From Coleofasciculus sp. B1-GNL1-01 (GTDB lineage Bacteria; Cyanobacteriota; Cyanobacteriia; Cyanobacteriales; Coleofasciculaceae): DNA of 64,000 nucleotides. The stretch lies in assembly GCA_040220235.1 (NCBI GenBank), contig JAVJTO010000051.1. The stretch is one strand, 5' to 3'. The notes under the pieces were generated by a model. It searched no databases. It was not told the DNA's origin and saw only the letters and a list, made by a program, of their open reading frames with translations. Shown piece by piece: positions 32,223 to 49,533 of this stretch. Position 1 is the stretch's first letter. Every line of letters starts with the position of its first letter. Both the position numbers and the translations under genes were made by a program.

Positions 32223-32312
32223 GGCTATCTTTCTTTGCCCTCTTGCGTCATGAGCATCTGTCTGTTGGTGAAGAAGCCCCGTCTGAATTTAATCATTCAG
32301 GCGGGGAGAAAG

Positions 32313-32504
32313 TCAGGCTACCACAAAATAGTTCAGGACGCCAACCACAATGACCAGAGCCAGCCAAAGCCCTGAACCTATCCAAATCAAATTTTTTGAT
32401 TGCTCCCAGTTTTGGGGGGTAGCATAGGCGACGGGAACGCCCACCACCATGACGAATGACAAAATTACCAAAGCTGCCAGTGATATTTGAAATAAGATAG
32501 ACAT
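32313..32504 (-). CDS. psbZ: photosystem II protein Z
   Basis: [19 protein letters not shown]; psbZ-ribH-trnG synteny. Confidence 0.95.
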
Positions 32505-32619
32505 TTCCTGTTGTGCCTTTCAAGACGTTAAATCCTTCTGATTGTAAGCTACCAAAAATTGACCCGCTTTTTTGAAAAAACTGAAAATCAACAACAAAGT
32601 AGATGGCAGATGAGGAAGA

Positions 32620-32906
32620 TGAGGGAGATGGGGAAGCAGGGGGAGCAGAGGGAGCAGAGGGAGCAGAGGGAGCAGAGGGAGCAGGGGGAGCAGGGGGAGC
32701 AGGGGGAGCAGGGGGAGCAGGGGAAGCAGGGGAAGCAGGGGGAGCAGGGGAAGCAGGGGGAGCAGGGGAAGCAGGGGAAGCAGGGGGAGCAGGGGGAGCA
32801 GAGGGAGCAAACAAATGGCGAATGACAAATGACAAATGACGAATGACAAATGACAAATGACAAATGACAAATGACAAATGACAAATGACAAATGACAAAT
32901 GACAAA
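32620..32906. repeat. STRR microsatellite block: 9-mer GGGGAGCAG variants then heptamer ATGACAA
   Basis: directly visible tandem arrays. Confidence 0.9.
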
Positions 32907-32908
32907 CC

Positions 32909-35695
32909 ATGGACTTAATCTTGTGTCACACGATTAGCGACTTTGATGCCCTCGGAGCGGCTGTTGGGCTGACGCGCCTGAAAACAGGAGCGAAACTTGT
33001 CCTAACAGGCGGCGCTCACCCGGCGGTTCGGGATTTTTTGGCACTGCATCGGGATGAGTATGCTTTGATTGAACGACGTTCGGTTAAAGTAGATCAAATT
33101 CATTCCCTCGTCGTGGTGGATACCCAAAAGCGCGATCGCTTAGGGAAAGCCGCTCAATGGTTCGACTTGCCTCATCTTACTGCCATTGAACTTTACGACC
33201 ATCACGGCGACACTCATTGTGATATTCCTGCTACATTCCGACAGGTTGAACCTGTAGGTGCCACCACAACGCTCATCGTCGAGCAATTACAACAAACCTC
33301 AATCCAATTAACCACCGCCGAAGCCACGGTGATGGCACTCGGTATCCATGTGGATACAGGTTCCTTAACCTTTGACCAAACCACCCCACGGGATGCCATG
33401 GCTCTGGCTTGGGTAATGGCACAAGGGGCAAATATCCGCCAGATTGCTGACTATGTTGATCCAGGACTTTCGCCCCAGTTGCAACAACTGCTCACCACAG
33501 CCCTAGAGCAGTTAAAATCTGAAAATTATCAAGGTAATACCCTGTCCTGGGTGTTCCTGAAAACTCAAGACTATGTACCGGGACTCTCAAGTTTAGCCTC
33601 ACGATTAGTTGATCTGACTGAAAGCGACGCCCTATTGCTGGCGGCAGAATATGGGGAAGATGGGGGAGATGGGGGAGATGGGGGAGATGGGGGAGATGGG
33701 GAAGATGGGGGAGATGGGGGAGAATCCAACCATCAACAATCAAAATCATCCCGTCTCACGATAATAGGGCGATCGCGGATTCCTGGCACGAATTTAAATG
33801 CGCTCTTACAACCCCTAGGTGGAGGGGGGCATTCTCAAGCCGCCGCCGTCACCCTACGCCATGAAAATCCCCCAGAGGTTTTGCCCCAACTCGTTGATCA
33901 ATTCAAGGAGCAAATTCCCCAACCCCTAAGCGCCCTGGAGTTAATGTCCTCCCCGGTGCGAACTATTCGCCCCGATACCACCGTTGGCGAAGCACAGCGG
34001 ATTTTGCTGCGTTATGGGCATTCTGGACTGTCTGTGGTTGATGAACATGACCAGTTAATTGGGATTATTTCACGGCGAGATATTGATCTGGCGCTGCATC
34101 ACGGTTTAGGTCATGCTCCAGTTAAAGGGTATATGACCCGAAACCTGAAAACCATTACCCCCCAAACCTCACTGCCAGAAATTGAGTCGCTGATGGTGAC
34201 TTATGATATTGGACGCTTACCCGTGTTAGAGAATGGGCAGTTAGTCGGGATTGTCACTCGTACTGATGTCCTGCGACAAGTACGCCAAGATCAAGAGCGC
34301 TGGGGAGAGACTTGCCCCATCCCGATGACCTATCCCTCATCCCGCCTGTTAAATATGCGGGAACGCCTTGCTCCTGCCCTGTGGCAATTGCTCACTCAAG
34401 CCGCCCAGGAAGCCCAGGAACGGGGTTGGCATCTCTATTTAGTGGGGGGAGCCGTTCGTGACGTATTGCTGGCGGATGAGAGCCAACCTTTGCTCCTAGA
34501 AGACGTAGATTTGGTGGTTGATGGGTTTCATCGGGCGGCTGATGTGGGCGCAGGAGTAACCTTGGCGAAAGCCTTGCGAGAACGGTATCCGAATGCTCGC
34601 TTAGAGGTTCATGGGGCGTTTCAAACGGCAGCATTACTGTGGCATAATGACCCGGTGTTGGATTCCTTGTGGATTGATATTGCCACGGCTCGGACTGAGT
34701 TTTATCCCTATCCAGCGGCGAATCCGGAAGTGGAAGCCAGTTCTATTCGCCAGGATCTCTATCGGCGAGATTTTACGATTAACGCTATGGCAGCCCGACT
34801 GACGGGGAGGCGAGGTGAGGCGTTGCCCCTACTGGATTTTTTTGGTGGGATGTTGGATTTGCGATCGCGTCAAATTCGCGTCTTGCATGCCAATAGTTTT
34901 ATCGAAGATCCCACTCGCATTTATCGAGCCGTTCGGTTTGCCGTGCGCTTAGGCTTTGAACTGGAACCCCAAACCCAAGACTATATCCAGTATGCGTTAG
35001 AGAGTGGCGTTTATGAGCGATCGCTAGGAGCAAAGACGCGAGCGCCTGCCCTAGAAACCCGCTTGAAAGCCGAATTAAAGTACATCCTAGAAGCCCCCTA
35101 TTGGCAACGGGCATTCCAACTCATCGGCTCACTCGGAGCATTACGCTGTCTTCATCCCAGCTTAAAGCTTGACCCATTGTTATGGTGGCGGGTTCGTCTA
35201 ATTGACCGTTGGTTACGACGCTTTGACCCTGACCAAACCCTCAAACATTGGCAGATGCGTCTAGAGGTGTTAATTGCCTATCTAGACCCTCAAGAACGCG
35301 GCAAAGTGGCAGAAAATTTACAACTGCCTATTGATAGTATTGAGCGACTGCAGCATCTCGGACAAGCCCAAACTGAGGTGGTAGAGTCTCTACCCCAATG
35401 TCAGCGTCCCAGTGAAGTCGTTTGGCTGCTACGTCAGTATAAATTACCCACATTGGTTTTGATTGCCGTACACAGTTCTAGAGCAATTCGGCGCAAGTTG
35501 TGGCACTATTTCACAAACTTGGCAATCGTGCAAGTTCCTCTTAATGGCAATGATCTCAAAGGTTTGGGGTATAAGCCAGGACCACACTATAAGGAGATAT
35601 TAGATGCCCTGTTAGCCGCAACTTTGGATGGCGTGATTCAGAATGAGGCAGATGCCAAAGCATTTTTAGAGCAGCATTATCCTTGCTCTAAGTGA
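32909..35695 (+). CDS. DHH-CBS tRNA nucleotidyltransferase (A-adding type)
   Basis: DFD and DHH motifs, CBS pair, LVGGAVRD...[22 protein letters not shown]. Confidence 0.92.
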
Positions 35696-35855
35696 GTTTT
35701 GACTCTTGACTTGGCACAATTTGGATATAGTTGGTAAAAGTATAGTCAAATATAGACAGACTGAATTTCATTGCAGAAATTCCCTTCGCTTTTACTTTGA
35801 GAGATTAATTCTCCTGGGGTGAACTACGCACCTCTCTATCCCATAGCGGTTAAAC

Positions 35856-37031
35856 TTATGGGAATGCTTTTCGTAAAATATTGTAGGAACCGATGACATC
35901 AGATTGAACGAGAACCCCCTGCTCTGTACGATATAAACCTCGTTTAATTCTTTTTCCACTAAAAACGGGTTTTTCAGTAGAGACGCGCCATGGCGCGTCT
36001 CTACCATAAACGGGGAGAGGATCTAAATTCAAAAAATTAGAAGCTGAGGTATAGGATTCTTCTTGAAGAATCACCGATATTCCTAGTAATTGACATTTGT
36101 AAATAATCATGTCAATTAATCGAGCATGAGGAACGGTCACAAATTTTTGATTGTTGACTTTTCCTAAGTTCACTTCTTGTTTCCAACCGTCATTTTTCCC
36201 AATAACTAAAGTCGTGATATTTTGGTCAACTAAAAGATTGACTAAATAACGACTAGCTCGATGAAGATAATTATCTATCTTCTGATTACGGCAACGGGTT
36301 AAACGACGGATTCTTTGGGAACTTTTGTGATTGCCTTTTAACAGAGATTGTAACTTCGCTCGACGCTGGTTATAAAATTGATTTAGGCTTTTTAACGGTC
36401 TGCCATTAATCAACAAAGGAGTAAAATCCGGTTGATTTGAAGTTACAGCCATTAAATTATCTATACCTAAATCTATTGCTGCTATCTTTTCATTGGGGGT
36501 TAATAACTGTTCTTTTTCTTCATAAATTACCTCGATTACATAACAATCACATTTCGGAATGATTCTTACTTCTGCTATACGGTTAGCCACTTGACTGGTC
36601 AACTCAATATTAGTTCCTGATAGCTTGACTAATCCTTTTCTTCTGGCTACTTGACTTATCGCTTGAATTGTATAAATTAGCAGATTTCGTCCTTTTTTGG
36701 TATCTTTATAGCCAGGGATTTTCGGTCTGCCTATAAATTTATCGGGATGCTTTTTAAATTCGGAGGTCGCGGCGAAAAATGATTTCCAGTTCCGATCTAA
36801 TCCTCTTAAAACTTGCTGTGATACTTTAGCTGGTAAGGCTTTATATTGTTCGGTCTCTTTCATTAAGGAAGCCATCTGATTATAAGTCAAATACCCATGA
36901 CCATAAATCCAGTTTTGACGGATGAGATAATTGGCTGAGTTGTAAAGATTTTTAGACTGCCAAGACAAGCGATCTATCGACCTCCAAAAACGATGCCCCT
37001 TTTTAATTATATGTCTTTGAGCTAGTCGCAT
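35856..37031 (-). CDS. tnpB: TnpB RNA-guided endonuclease (IS607-associated clade), C-terminus frameshifted
   Basis: MRLAQRHIIKK start; RuvC AIDLG, QEESYTS, SDVIGSYNI; the tail GIERCVVHPRRINL lies in another frame (to 35792). Confidence 0.88.
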   Translation of the reverse strand: MRLAQRHIIKKGHRFWRSIDRLSWQSKNLYNSANYLIRQNWIYGHGYLTYNQMASLMKETEQYKALPAKVSQQVLRGLDRNWKSFFAATSEFKKHPDKFIGRPKIPGYKDTKKGRNLLIYTIQAISQVARRKGLVKLSGTNIELTSQVANRIAEVRIIPKCDCYVIEVIYEEKEQLLTPNEKIAAIDLGIDNLMAVTSNQPDFTPLLINGRPLKSLNQFYNQRRAKLQSLLKGNHKSSQRIRRLTRCRNQKIDNYLHRASRYLVNLLVDQNITTLVIGKNDGWKQEVNLGKVNNQKFVTVPHARLIDMIIYKCQLLGISVILQEESYTSASNFLNLDPLPVYGRDAPWRVSTEKPVFSGKRIKRGLYRTEQGVLVQSDVIGSYNILRKAFP

Positions 37032-37192
37032 TATTGTCCGTGAGATTTTAATTCGGCTATAATCTTTTCGGTTTTTCGTTTCGACCTTCTTAAATTGATG
37101 ACCTGTCAAATTTCCTTGTTTCCACCACATAAAGGCAGTTCGATAACTGATTCCTGCTTTTTTGGTATAGATAGTCGGAGAGAGAGTTTCAT
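37031..37192 (-). pseudogene. tnpA: IS607 TnpA serine recombinase remnant (internal deletion and frameshifts)
   Basis: MKLS/DY/TKKAGISYRTAFMWWKQGNLTGHQ (MerR-like HTH) joined to RRSKRKTEKIIAELKSHGQ*, whose stop overlaps the tnpB ATG. Confidence 0.75.
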
Positions 37193-37246
37193 GTATATAT
37201 TACCCAACATGACTACATCTGACTATATTCTTATTGAAACTTTACA

Positions 37247-37505
37247 ATACCGTCGTAATCAGGTGCAGGAATACATCGTGTGGCAATTTTATGACCAACG
37301 CCTCGATTGGTTTAGATTACGAGATGGTGACTATGTTTCCCTACAACCGGATGATGAAGGGATTGTCAGGAGTGAGGTTTTTCCGGGATTGTGGTTAGCT
37401 GTACCCGCCTTGTTAGCAGGGGATTTGGCTCAAGTGCTGTCAGTATTGCAGGAGGGATTGGCGACACCGGAACATGGGGCATTTGTTGAGCAGTTAAGGG
37501 AGTAA
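37247..37505 (+). pseudogene. C-terminal fragment of a Uma2 (DUF820) endonuclease
   Basis: YRRNQVQEYIVWQFYDQRLDWFRL...SEVFPGLWL; N-terminus missing at the IS end. Confidence 0.8.
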
Positions 37506-39292
37506 TAACTGAAAGGATGTCCTCGGTATTTAAGCCGATCATGATGGGAGTCAGCATTAGCATTAGAAGGAATGTCTAGATCTTTTAGGTGTCGCTTAAC
37601 ACGACGAAGTTGACGTTCCCGTCCTCGATCCAATTGTTTGAGTTGGGAACAAACGATACGCCGCCCTTTAAGTTCTTTAAAACCAACACACCAACAAAAT
37701 ACTGAAGGTGCGTCTGGTGGAGTTCCGATTTGCTTGCGTCCAACGGACATTGAAATAAGTCTCTGATGCAGTCTATAAATAATTTGACCTTTGCTCCTCC
37801 GCGTACCAGGAGAATATGATTTTTCAGAAGAATTTGTTGATTTCTGCTTAGGACAAACGTACTTGAGAATATTGTCAGCTTGTTCAACTTGTTTTTTGAG
37901 TTCTTTTTCAACTGAAGAAGGGCGGATTCTAATTAATCCATCATAGCGGAGTTGGTATCCGAGAAAGGAAACCCAAGGAACAGCAGCCGCATTGTCTTTA
38001 GCTGCCCATTTGTAGGGAGACTTAGATTTTTTATCCCAAAAGCCCTTGTTGTACTTCTCAACCTGCCAGGGATCATGAGGCAGTAAGTTAAGTGAACTCA
38101 GTGCTGTTCTATATTGCTCAAAAGCACTATGACACTTTGCTTTATCCGGATGAACAATAATCATGTCATCACAGTACCTAGCATAAAATAAATCTGGATC
38201 GGGTTTTTCTGGATCTTGGAGTACCTGCCGATCTGCTTGATCGAGCAGTAAGTTAACAACTAAGCATGAAAGCGCACTTCCTTGGGGTATACCGATATAT
38301 TCATTTGATGGATTATTATAGAATTGTTTTAATTCATCTTCGGGCCATCCTGTATAACCTTCAGGATCTTTTTCTTTAAACCATTTATCAGCTTCATTTT
38401 GTGCATACCCTGAAAAGGAATATGATTCTAAATATGCATCAAAAATTTCTCTGGCTCGTTTATCGACTGCTGGTTCACCTGAATTTATCCGCTGTATTGC
38501 TAAATTTAGAGTATCTTTAGCTTTTTGATGGTGTACGCAATCAAAGAACTTCTGAATATCACATTCAGCAACCCAAAGAATTTGATCATCTCTCTGTTCT
38601 CTATACTCGATAATAGCCTTAAAAGCCTCATGATGATTCTTGCCACTTCTAAAGGCATAGGAACAATCCAAAAAAAATTTGTCAAATATTTTACAAAAAT
38701 AGCGAGCGCATAATTTATCTATAATTCGATCAACTATATTTTCGTATACAGCAATTATACGATAACTATGCTCATCAGATTTTGGAATTAGTTTTATACA
38801 AGGCTTACTCATGGAGTAGGGAGCAAACATTACCCAAAGTAGGCATCTTGCAAGGGTTTCAGACCCCTTTGAAAGAGCTAATATCCAAAAATTTGATGCT
38901 CCCATTTGATATGTAAATCCTAGAGCAGCACTCTTGATTTCGTCAATTTTTTTATTAAGATTTTTTAACCATATTTCATTTTTATACTTAGGATTATTAC
39001 GCACCCGCAACACAGTTTTACTAAGAGCTAACTTGTTGATTTCTATACTGCTCTTATTCTTGCGTTCGTGACGATTCGGACGATACCACTGCTTTCGCGG
39101 TGGGAATAAATCATGAATTATTTTGTCTGTTTTTGAAAGCTGGTCAAGCCGATCAGGGTGTATGGGTGGAGGTGCATCTTTTGATATGTTGTAGAGAAAT
39201 TGTTTGTCATGTCGCTTCTTAGCAAGTGTCACTCGCAGGGTACACAACTCACGAATGATATTCTCATCAGAGAAGCATTTTTCTAGGTGCAT
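37430..39292 (-). CDS. stand-alone reverse transcriptase, UG/DRT-like (YCDD)
   Basis: RT motifs PK..YRII, SYAFR, ECDIQKFFD, GIPQGSALS, YARYCDDM, FLGY; probable ATG at 39292 (MHLEKCF); the upstream TTG extension runs through the structured leader. Confidence 0.88.
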   Translation of the reverse strand: MHLEKCFSDENIIRELCTLRVTLAKKRHDKQFLYNISKDAPPPIHPDRLDQLSKTDKIIHDLFPPRKQWYRPNRHERKNKSSIEINKLALSKTVLRVRNNPKYKNEIWLKNLNKKIDEIKSAALGFTYQMGASNFWILALSKGSETLARCLLWVMFAPYSMSKPCIKLIPKSDEHSYRIIAVYENIVDRIIDKLCARYFCKIFDKFFLDCSYAFRSGKNHHEAFKAIIEYREQRDDQILWVAECDIQKFFDCVHHQKAKDTLNLAIQRINSGEPAVDKRAREIFDAYLESYSFSGYAQNEADKWFKEKDPEGYTGWPEDELKQFYNNPSNEYIGIPQGSALSCLVVNLLLDQADRQVLQDPEKPDPDLFYARYCDDMIIVHPDKAKCHSAFEQYRTALSSLNLLPHDPWQVEKYNKGFWDKKSKSPYKWAAKDNAAAVPWVSFLGYQLRYDGLIRIRPSSVEKELKKQVEQADNILKYVCPKQKSTNSSEKSYSPGTRRSKGQIIYRLHQRLISMSVGRKQIGTPPDAPSVFCWCVGFKELKGRRIVCSQLKQLDRGRERQLRRVKRHLKDLDIPSNANADSHHDRLKYRGHPFSYYSLNCSTNAPCSGVANPSCNTDST

Positions 39293-39319
39293 CCTGGACT
39301 CTACATTTATTTGATGGGA

Positions 39320-39510
39320 AAAAGAGGCGGACGAGTCTAGGGGTGGTGTGAGCCTCTTTTTTAAGAAGCCCATTCTACTAGAATACACAATCGTGACTTT
39401 ACAAACCGGACGAATAGTGTACCTAAGTCGGTCTCAAAACTGACTGGTGCTTCGATTTCACCTTGTAAGAAGGCTACCTCCGCCCATCAGACACCCCGGA
39501 CTCGTCCGGT
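39320..39510 (-). ncRNA. putative structured ncRNA/leader associated with the RT
   Basis: 5' GGACGAGUCCGGGGUG pairs with 3' CACCCCUAGACUCGUCC; internal hairpins include UGGGCUUCUU-AAAA-AAGAGGCUCA (39349-39372). Confidence 0.65.
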
Positions 39511-39513
39511 ACT

Positions 39514-39542
39514 AGTCTATTCAAAATATTCTTGGGTTTCAA
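39514..39542 (-). promoter_or_regulatory. sigma70-like promoter for the ncRNA-RT unit
   Basis: TTGAAA (39542-39537), 17-nt spacer, TAGACT (39519-39514); predicted start ~39507-39510. Confidence 0.6.
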
Positions 39543-39662
39543 CTCAACAGTCAAAGTGAGGAAGTTAAAGTTTTGTGTAGGGGCGGGTTTCACCATTATC
39601 GTGTCTTGCCTCACAACAGATATAACTAAACCCGCCCCAACCAAGATTGATTTAACTCAGGA

Positions 39663-47550: not shown

Positions 47551-48426
47551 ATGGCAAACATCCCCAGCTTTACCCCTCAACCCACAGCCGATGGCTCATT
47601 CACCTTCTTTTCTGAAGCGTTTGGTGAATATTTCCACAGCACTCAAGGGGCAAAAACGGAAGCGTTGTTAAAATTTGTGGAACCTTGTCATCTGAAACAA
47701 AAAGCCCAACAGCAGGTTGTGCGTCTGCTGGATATCTGCTACGGCTTAGGCTACAATACGGCGGCGGCTCTAGAAACGATTTGGACGATTAATCCCAGAT
47801 GTCAAGTTGAATTAGTCGCCCTGGAATTAGACCCGACTGTACCGCGAAGCGCGATCGCACATCATTTTCTCAGTGGCTGGAATCACCCGATTCCCGAACT
47901 CCTAGAGTGTCTGGTGACAACCTCAGAAGTTAAAACGGATCAGCTTCAGGCGCAACTTTATTTCGGCGACGCCAGAAATAGCATCCAGCAATTGTCTCAG
48001 TTGAACCTCCAAGCTGATGCTATTTTTCTCGATCCCTTTTCTTCCCGTCGCTGTCCCCAATTATGGACAGTGGAATTTTTTCAGCAATTAGCTGAATGCT
48101 GTGCCAAAACAGGTAGACTAGCAACCTATTCCTGTGCGGCAGCTGTCCGTAGCGGCTTAATAACGGCTGGATTTAAGATTGGTTCGACACCCCCTGTAGG
48201 GGGACGACAACCGGGAACTGTGGCAAGTTTTGACGCTTCCACTCTACCCCCTTTCTCGGAGCGATCGCGTCAACATTTGCAAACCCGTGCGGCTATTCCC
48301 TATCGTGATCCTCAACTTGCGGATCAGGCTGAGATTATTCTGCAACGGCGGCAAATTGAGCAGCAATCTTCTACTCTCGAACCCACCTCACACTGGCAAA
48401 AACGTTGGTCGGCGAAAGAGGGATGA
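47551..48426 (+). CDS. MnmC-like SAM-dependent methyltransferase
   Basis: TADGSFT, LDICYGLGYN, FLDPFS..CPQLWT, LATYS motifs. Confidence 0.85.
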   Translation: MANIPSFTPQPTADGSFTFFSEAFGEYFHSTQGAKTEALLKFVEPCHLKQKAQQQVVRLLDICYGLGYNTAAALETIWTINPRCQVELVALELDPTVPRSAIAHHFLSGWNHPIPELLECLVTTSEVKTDQLQAQLYFGDARNSIQQLSQLNLQADAIFLDPFSSRRCPQLWTVEFFQQLAECCAKTGRLATYSCAAAVRSGLITAGFKIGSTPPVGGRQPGTVASFDASTLPPFSERSRQHLQTRAAIPYRDPQLADQAEIILQRRQIEQQSSTLEPTSHWQKRWSAKEG

Positions 48427-48612
48427 GGGAGCGAGGGGAAGCAGGGGGAGCGGGGGAAGCAGGGGAAGCAGGGGAAGCAGAGGGAAGATGGGGGAGATGG
48501 GGGAGATGGGGAAGATAGGGAAGATGGGGGAGATGGGGAAGATGGGGGAGATGGGGAAGATGGGGGAGATGGGGAAGATGGGGGAGAATGACGAATGACA
48601 AAGGACGAATGA
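48427..48612. repeat. STRR block (GGGGAAGCA/GGGGAGATG 9-mers and GAATGAC heptamers)
   Basis: directly visible tandem arrays. Confidence 0.9.
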
Positions 48613-49533
48613 CTAATGACTAATCCCCCATAGGAAAGCAGCCACACCGAGTAAACACAAGATACCCGATATCCCAGCTAAGGGATTATCTCCTATTCCC
48701 GTTATCCATATCGATCCTTTTCTGGTATAAGAAATCAGTTTGGCTTCCTGAAGACAGGTTAATCCCCAAATCCAACCCGCATGAAGTCCCCAGGCTAAGC
48801 CTAAACTCCCCCCATTTACACACCGGGCTAAAACTAATACCATACCCATTAGCCACAATCCAGGAATTTGAGGGAGCGTCTGTTGCTGTTCCCAAATCAG
48901 ATGTAATAGAGCAAAAATCAGACTGGATATTACCGCCGCTATTGCTAGAGAATAGTCCTGTTGGAGTTCCGTCAGAAGGAACCCGCGAAACACCAATTCC
49001 TCGATTAATCCAATCCCTAGTCCTATTGCACATATTGGCAGTCCAATCCGGGTCAATTGCTGCCAATTTTCTCCATGCCAATCCACCCAGCCTACTAGCC
49101 ATTGTCCCGTAAAGCTGATTCCTAAGCTCAAAATTGCCACGCCCAATCCCCCGACTAAGGATATCAAAATCCGCGTCGTCCAGTCCCAGCCATAGTCGGG
49201 AAACGATGTATCTTCTATCTGTGTTGCCCCCCAGATAATCAGGGGGGCAATGAGGTAAAGAACAGCGACGAATGGCAACTTTTTCTGTGCTGCCAAAGGC
49301 TTAGGAGGATGCCATTTCAGTCGGGTGGCGATCGCGATGGCTAAGGGCAACCACAACGCAGACCAAGCCAGAAAAAAAACCGCGACTTTTACTAGCGCCG
49401 ATGCGCTTATTAGCCAAATAATACACGGATTATCTGCCTGATCAAACATAGCCATAAGCGAGATCGGCAAACGGTGAGGAGCTATAATTTTTACGCTGCT
49501 ACTTTCATGCTGCCAAGGATGGATACTTTGCAT
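48613..49533 (-). CDS. CPBP (CAAX/Abi) intramembrane metalloprotease
   Basis: EELVFRG, FALLH, GLHAGW motifs; start uncertain. Confidence 0.88.
   Translation of the reverse strand: MQSIHPWQHESSSVKIIAPHRLPISLMAMFDQADNPCIIWLISASALVKVAVFFLAWSALWLPLAIAIATRLKWHPPKPLAAQKKLPFVAVLYLIAPLIIWGATQIEDTSFPDYGWDWTTRILISLVGGLGVAILSLGISFTGQWLVGWVDWHGENWQQLTRIGLPICAIGLGIGLIEELVFRGFLLTELQQDYSLAIAAVISSLIFALLHLIWEQQQTLPQIPGLWLMGMVLVLARCVNGGSLGLAWGLHAGWIWGLTCLQEAKLISYTRKGSIWITGIGDNPLAGISGILCLLGVAAFLWGISH

Follow-up and report, generated by a model that had tools for sequence, protein, structure and literature searches.

A stem-closed RNA upstream of a UG39 reverse transcriptase in Coleofasciculus and in most relatives of the enzyme, probably part of an RNA-templated DNA-making system

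The window, a 64,000-nt stretch of Coleofasciculus sp. B1-GNL1-01 (contig JAVJTO010000051.1), carries on its minus strand a sigma70-like promoter, a predicted structured RNA and, 36 nt past the basal stem of that RNA, the start codon of a reverse transcriptase (RT) gene (Table 1). The neighbours of the RT are an aldolase gene upstream and Uma2 and TnpB genes on the other side. Between the aldolase gene and the promoter lies a palindromic repeat that occupies the same site in sister species, may terminate the aldolase transcript and resembles the short dispersed repeats of filamentous cyanobacteria. An IS200/IS605-family element at 35723-37251 on the minus strand, with its TnpB at 35856-37130, splits the Uma2 gene, which is whole in the sister species G1043 and G1044, and the open reading frame at 37095-37505 is a chimera of the end of this element and the 3′ half of Uma2.

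Table 1. Features of the locus, in window coordinates, in the order of the minus strand
Feature	Position	Strand	Basis or remark
Dispersed palindromic repeat, about 65-70 bp, host element outside the cassette	39575..39643	.	227 BLAST matches in the genome
Sigma70-like promoter, TTGAAA (39542-39537), N17, TAGACT (39519-39514), predicted start about 39507	39514..39542	-	9/12 match
Predicted ncRNA of about 180 nt, a basal stem closing its multiloop	39328..39508	-	z -3.86, no Rfam match, family-wide position
Basal stem P1, 5′ arm	39492..39507	-	pair probability 0.98-1.0
First inner stem-loop, CUGAUGG...CCAGUCAG, with GCCUU/AAGGU inside	39440..39490	-	p 0.66-0.89
Middle region with several near-equal folds	39373..39439	-	contains UUUU 39439-39436, a 15-nt loop and, at 39402-39373, 30 nt of weak pairing
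Last hairpin, 10 bp including two G-U pairs	39349..39372	-	p 0.93
Basal stem P1, 3′ arm	39329..39345	-	pair probability 0.98-1.0
U5 run right after P1, possible 3′ end signal	39319..39323	-	sequence
UG39 reverse transcriptase, 620 aa, ATG at 39292; YCDD 38176-38165	37430..39292	-	PADLOC, Pfam, Foldseek
3′ half of Uma2 gene, convergent with the RT, whose last 24 codons it overlaps; does not belong to the system	37247..37505	+	Pfam PF05685

The RT matched the PADLOC profile RT_UG39 over model positions 2-535 of 541 (563.6 bits, E 1.3e-169; next best 2.8e-26), and by this match it is a Class 2 UG/Abi RT of group UG39, with which it shares a single RT domain: RVT_1 (PF00078) was the sole Pfam domain, and structural matches cover residues 1-606. 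Membership of UG28/Drt9 was rejected on the far lower score of the Drt9 profile (83.9 bits, E 2.6e-24). Other identities tried and set aside were a group II intron maturase (TIGR04416 at 92.9 bits against a cut-off of 300, and no intron RNA family in the window), a retron RT (best retron profiles at E about 1e-7, St85 at 27 bits against a cut-off of 235) and Drt2 or Drt3a, for which the protein fell far under the profile cut-offs; the UG17 profile matched at E 4e-15. The predicted structure (pLDDT 91) had DRT9 as its best Foldseek match (9vma, E 4e-16), and in VIA-align DRT9 (Z 22.1, rmsd 4.4, 427 residues aligned) tied in Z with a DGR RT (Z 22.2, rmsd 3.1, 318 aligned), DRT9 aligning more residues of the two. 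The YCDD motif is intact, CDD is invariant in 105/105 aligned homologs, and a conserved C-terminal G-x-P-F-S-Y ends at Y596 (37507-37505), a tyrosine likewise found in 105/105 and preceded by S595 in 103/105.

In the accessible text of Mestre et al. 2022 (PMC9226505), UG39 is a Class 2 group, the former UG28b, split from UG28 and tied to a VirE/PriCT-2 gene; its link to defence is rated inconclusive, ncRNAs are predicted only for UG2, UG3+UG8, UG27 and UG28, and the text passages and supplementary file searched held no ncRNA for UG39. Within the literature searched, outside most subscription papers and preprint supplements, UG39 as an RT was named only by Mestre et al. 2022, and the name was absent from the preprints checked by term. 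The RNA described here is apparently new to the literature. Intact UG39 was found in none of 51 other genomes of the window's family, in 0/144 and 0/89 genomes of two other families and in 2/389 of a fourth; it was absent from the phage collection searched, and only 1/59 viral loci returned was full-length. At one locus (G168, L150:7724-8770), in a neighbourhood of small toxin-antitoxin-like genes, only the C-terminal half of the RT remains, and the N-terminal half was not found in the 13 kb examined. The only plasmid match, from a spirochaete (L156, NZ_CP035808.1, 17339-27008), carries separately annotated genes for a BT4734 partner and a UG39 RT.

The predicted folded RNA of about 180 nt is a real structured element. 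Against shuffled controls the minus strand of 39325-39512 folded at -68.9 kcal/mol (z -3.86), and none of 200 shuffles did as well, in keeping with the original prediction of an ncRNA here. Its ends pair as proposed, GGACGAGUC with GACUCGUCC over 9 bp and GGGGUG with CACCCC over 6 bp at probabilities of 0.98-1.0, with a 1x2 internal loop instead of the single bulge expected and with 15 Watson-Crick pairs and zero wobble in the best fold. The plus strand folds equally well (z -4.00), so that folding energy expresses no preference for a strand. Among the proposed inner hairpins, the 10-bp stem UGGGCUUCUU/AAGAGGCUCA (p 0.93) and CCUU/AAGG (0.89) were recovered and AUUCU/AGAAU reached 0.51, whereas UACAC/GUGUA stayed at 0.19 and AGUC/GACU and GGUG/CACC were absent among helices with p > 0.04; forcing either of the latter two gave a fold containing both together with UACAC/GUGUA, at -62.8 kcal/mol against -65.8 for the best fold, a cost of 3 kcal/mol. 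The most probable inner hairpin, at 39490-39440 (p about 0.8), had been overlooked. This one and the hairpin at 39372-39349 are the only firm inner hairpins, the middle of the RNA having at least three folds within 3 kcal/mol, and the weakly paired 30-nt stretch lies 5′ of the last hairpin. In a window-wide Rfam search only two tRNAs matched; the RNA itself had no match up to E 10, and it is single-copy in the genome. Its anatomy is as expected for its class, in this copy as a prediction.

Our set began with 90 UG39 loci, drawn from genomes, viral contigs and, as the best 80 of 446, metagenomes. We excluded 8 because they were truncated or lacked a usable start, 3 for having less than 200 nt upstream and 5 as duplicates, which left 74 and the window. 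Counting stems in MFE folds had little discriminating power, and a position-anchored score was used in its place. With this score, a basal stem scoring at least 28 and closing no more than 45 nt from the RT start was found in 45/75 loci against 1/75 RT-internal controls, and at a score of 24 in 60/75 against 19/75. The 30/75 loci below 28 include the window, which scored 27 with a greedy scorer that did not bridge the 1x2 loop. Similarly, the 200 nt upstream of the RT had a median z of -2.46 (40/74 below -2), against -0.02 inside the RT (4/74 below -2). The enclosed RNAs are 122-257 nt long, with one RNA per locus in the loci examined. By these measures, a stem-closed RNA before the RT is a feature of the UG39 family.

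In 42/45 strong-stem loci, 0-22 nt separate the close of the stem from the start codon, and a Shine-Dalgarno-like motif is present in only 2/45. An RNA so placed could govern translation, and the element might thus be a structured 5′ leader, or a non-templating scaffold, that sets the expression or assembly of the RT, whose DNA would then be untemplated or made from another template; that the RNA sequences could not be aligned between clades would suit such a role. Invariant single-stranded motifs in the multiloop of clade A, described below, would be unnecessary for a simple regulatory stem, and the RNAs of DRT2 and DRT9, which in the accessible descriptions also lie 5′ of the RT, are templates. 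We regard a leader or bare scaffold as quite improbable. The RNA is very probably the partner RNA of the UG39 RT.

Covariation was found in two clades: 15/27 pairs change on both sides in clade A (10 sequences) and 12/27 in clade C2 (9 sequences), in each case with 0/500 shuffles reaching this level, the structures having been derived from the same alignments and the related sequences not being independent. Slid registers of these alignments drop to 24-48% paired. The clade A covariance model found 5 held-out RNAs and the clade C2 model 1, each just upstream of an RT; a trimmed alignment of 14 clade B2 sequences gave no consensus fold, and MAFFT alignments of fixed windows yielded little consensus structure, if any. 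Three covariance models, R1 (from the two nearest relatives, L011 and L154), R2 (clade A) and R3 (clade C2), did not detect the RNA of the window, and its membership therefore rests on its position, fold, promoter and RT. R1 also misses L155.

The nearest RTs among the loci collected are 42-47% identical to that of the window (the closest proteins, 44-50%), and by eye their RNAs match its plan of a basal stem, two inner stem-loops, a single-stranded stretch and a last hairpin, with no sequence alignable to it. L011 and L154 have a CUG..CAG hairpin one base past P1, with one compensatory change between them, a likeness to the window again judged by eye. No credible DNA match to the RNA was found in the 51 family genomes, where one 24-nt match lay at the promoter end. 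An A-rich 5′ bulge motif was considered as a family-wide mark and rejected, since it occurred in 48/58 RNAs against 47 mirror-image and 46-48 shuffled ones, and folding the window's RNA on it costs 9.5 kcal/mol. Most RTs of clade C2 (L026, L027, L037, L043, L044, L048, L049, L051, L055, L065, L069) end otherwise than with the usual YYGxPFSY tail, some of them in a membrane-like C-terminus that is aromatic and basic, and upstream of the RT, L043 and L055 carry a gene with an NYN ribonuclease domain; clade C2 is possibly a subtype with its own effector.

TTGAAA-N17-TAGACT is present where it had been predicted, and GGACGAGUCCGGGGUG begins at G39507, six bases past the -10 hexamer, but the motif by itself is at chance level, with 8 sites in 3.1 kb against 7.7 expected. 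Promoter motifs are aligned with the stem across much of the family. In clade B1, the Bacteroidota-type motif TAnnTTT(G/A) stands at the 5′ end of the stem in 10/11 loci against 0.17 expected, and a -10 hexamer does so in 16/35 other loci against 6.9 expected, including 4/4 of the window's RT clade, where it precedes the stem by 5-8 nt; clade B2 has no promoter excess there (3/15 against 4.8 expected), and its RNA follows a same-strand gene. For 24 loci in this comparison the stem start was placed by eye. A deletion of the cassette in a sister species starts at 39546, 4 nt upstream of the -35 hexamer. At the other end of the RNA, a U-rich patch comes after P1 in 27/45 homologs and before it in 10/45. 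From the position of the promoter we infer transcription from about 39507.

Neighbouring genes were scanned as the longest open reading frame of at least 90 aa on each side, a rule by which smaller genes could be missed, giving 53/64 upstream and 47/60 downstream frames. A gene with BT4734-like and PriCT-2 domains was present in 22/53 upstream frames, all in clade B, and PF08800 (BT4734-like) was not found in the genome of the window (G000) or in G755 (the genome with locus L154) and G747, in a search whose control matched in 1/14. BT4734-like proteins are, in the part of the source available, a family of archaeo-eukaryotic primases (PMC5862659). Partner and RNA-RT unit point away from each other in clade B1 (L023, L025, L028, L039, L057, L063, L064, L076, L081, L083) and share a strand in clade B2 (L007, L031, L054, L060, L067, L072, L073, L078, L080, L086, L087, L091), where the 5′ arm of the RNA abuts or overlaps the last codons of the partner. 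In contrast to the group as set out in the accessible text of Mestre et al. 2022, then, the RNA is family-wide here and the VirE/PriCT-2 partner belongs to one RT clade only, which makes that published partner optional. Other neighbours in the scanned loci were restriction-modification, MmeI, type ISP, OLD, TIR, Schlafen, Fic and methylase genes. Within clades, DUF2130 genes recur downstream (L034, L047, L058), as do DUF5131 genes (L012, L022), and an OLD-family ATPase-TOPRIM gene recurs upstream (L056, L079), followed by an unknown gene of 343 aa.

Three Class 2 systems offer comparisons, and a cis ncRNA is used by all characterised Class 2 RTs in the descriptions available. DRT9 (UG28) consists of an RT and a 188-nt ncRNA and synthesises poly-dA (PMC12483538, PMC12489045). 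It is the best Foldseek match of the window's RT, and the UG39 pair resembles it in its two-part layout with the RNA 5′ of the RT, in RNA length and in a conserved aromatic C-terminal motif, and differs from it in its separate profile, in an RT of about 570-620 aa against about 499, in the position of the invariant tyrosine, which is off Y496/Y498, and in having no family-wide U-tract. DRT10 (UG17), in the accessible parts of two preprints, combines an ncRNA, a SLATT protein and an RT that makes telomerase-like tandem repeats (bioRxiv 10.1101/2025.10.16.682844; 10.64898/2026.06.29.735271). Like it, UG39 has a central stem decorated with smaller stem-loops and, in clade A, an A-B-A′ motif placed between two hairpins, in a linker of 17 nt, whereas the RNA of the window has no clear A-B-A′ and no SLATT gene lies beside its RT, nor was one among the Pfam matches listed for the 100 neighbours scanned. 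The original reading of the RNA as DRT-like is supported: the next gene encodes a Class 2 UG39 RT closest to DRT9 by Foldseek, and the RNA is stem-closed family-wide, covarying and promoter-aligned.

The third comparison supplies the main rival mode. UG27, also of Class 2, copies a central ncRNA hairpin into DNA of 50-100 nt and, in the available portion of the preprint, needs two accessory proteins and arrays of units (bioRxiv 10.64898/2026.09.22.753630). UG39 shares with these arrays a Class 2 RT and structured RNAs, roughly 150 nt long, whose sequences are diverse. A whole inner hairpin of the UG39 RNA might likewise be copied once into a short discrete cDNA, in the manner of UG27 or retrons, and the wide variation of UG39 inner hairpins in length and sequence, the lack of a repeat in the window's RNA and an end-to-end stem that resembles the paired ends of retron RNA would all agree with this. 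UG27, however, is phage-borne, and neither its accessory proteins nor its arrays are seen here, the fold of the RT is nearest DRT9 while retron profiles match weakly, and the repeat that is conserved in clade A lies in a single-stranded linker; we judge single copying of a hairpin improbable.

In clade A, AUUC-G-AUUC is invariant in 10/10 aligned RNAs, in the linker of ~17 nt between two hairpins, and therefore predicts (CGAAT)n DNA; one held-out member has AUUC-GA-AUUC. UUUU is also invariant in clade A, and only there, and poly-dA would therefore be possible in that clade. Internal UUUU is not enriched family-wide (33/58 RNAs against 28.8 expected, absent from L011 and L013). A short repeat was tried as a family-wide signal and rejected: it occurred in 30/64 RNAs against 18 expected (22/64 in the 5′ half), an excess driven largely by the related clade A sequences and weak elsewhere. 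The RNA of the window has no A-B-A′ repeat beyond chance, the best being UAGUAG (p 0.84).

The template of the window's RNA had been placed in a loop of ~28 nt closed by UACAC/GUGUA, to be opened and copied in DRT2 style. The fold with this helix, at -64.3 kcal/mol, is only 1.5 kcal/mol above the best, and clades A and B have, by eye, a weak hairpin with a large conserved loop in a similar place. In every fold that forms the helix, however, UCGU/ACGA pairs within the loop and narrows it to 15 nt, the fold is a minority one, and no aligned homolog speaks for it; we consider this location highly improbable. In the accessible accounts of Class 2 systems, the template is framed by two stem-loops, and because of this rule we place the window's template most likely within the weakly paired 39439-39373.

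Taken together, similar RNAs precede most relatives of the RT, and the RNA-RT pair is therefore probably a new RNA-templated DNA-making system, probably related to known anti-phage defences. We favour, with moderate confidence, a cis-encoded RNA that serves as template and scaffold of a two-part UG39 system like DRT9 and DRT10, here without a primase-like partner, and think it rather probable that short repetitive DNA is templated by the RNA as well. With a promoter of its own, the RNA would be transcribed, fold into a multiloop closed by the basal stem and bind the RT encoded downstream. Following the pattern of DRT9 and DRT10, its stem-loops would form a scaffold and anchor the boundaries, and the RT would repeatedly copy a short single-stranded stretch lying between two of them into simple-sequence single-stranded DNA, as an anti-phage response. 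A hydroxyl residue at the C-terminus of the RT would probably prime this synthesis. Protein priming is a hypothesis, because this invariant residue does not line up with the DRT9 primers: it falls within the part aligned to DRT9 up to about 475-482, short of the priming Y496/Y498.

A broader and doubtful proposal sees UG39 as a widespread telomerase-like system whose clades have each exchanged the RNA for one of their own and each write a different short DNA repeat, clade A making (CGAAT)n from AUUC-G-AUUC; most lineages, the window's included, would use the bare RT-RNA pair, and Bacteroidota-type loci would add a primase-like BT4734/PriCT-2 protein that could prime or make a second strand. 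The 5-nt repeat product predicted for clade A would test whether the telomerase-like A-B-A′ rule reaches into another family. The Class 2 defence RTs studied (DRT2, DRT3, DRT9, DRT10, UG27) each make a different unusual DNA from their own RNA, and for UG39 the RNA supplies the boundaries of the cassette for correct cloning, namely promoter, RNA and RT.

Its altered C-terminus makes the window's copy less suited to testing than its relatives. The homology of its RT ends at Y596-Y597, where the opposite strand has the Uma2 stop codon, and the last 24 codons are the antisense of the Uma2 remnant, a tail that may impair this copy; the family consensus runs on as S-Y-x-x-Q-F (Q in 72/105, F in 71/105). 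The preferred reading of the family could hold while this copy is an inactive relic whose RT has lost its native C-terminus. In the accessible text on DRT10, the priming residue must be at the C-terminus, and in the sister species G494 and G1043 nothing but deletion remnants is left. Against a relic, the 620-codon frame is intact, as are YCDD, promoter and RNA; tails of at least 20 residues occur in 26/105 homologs, and the same tail is found in the G1043 remnant and therefore predates the split of the two species. We consider a relic unlikely.

Comparison with the sister species points to turnover of the cassette at this site. In G1043, 39547 is joined directly to 37530, so that promoter, RNA and nearly the whole RT have been lost together and the last RT codons are kept, and G494 keeps RT fragments and has no RNA. 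Four other sister species have no cassette at the site, G1044 sharing only about 7 further bases with the end of the RT. Elsewhere in the window, low-complexity tandem repeats with 9-bp and 7-bp periods (32293-32910, 33500-33750 and 48230-48650) create spurious open reading frames, and one array reads in frame within a 928-aa gene of CBS/poly(A) polymerase type.
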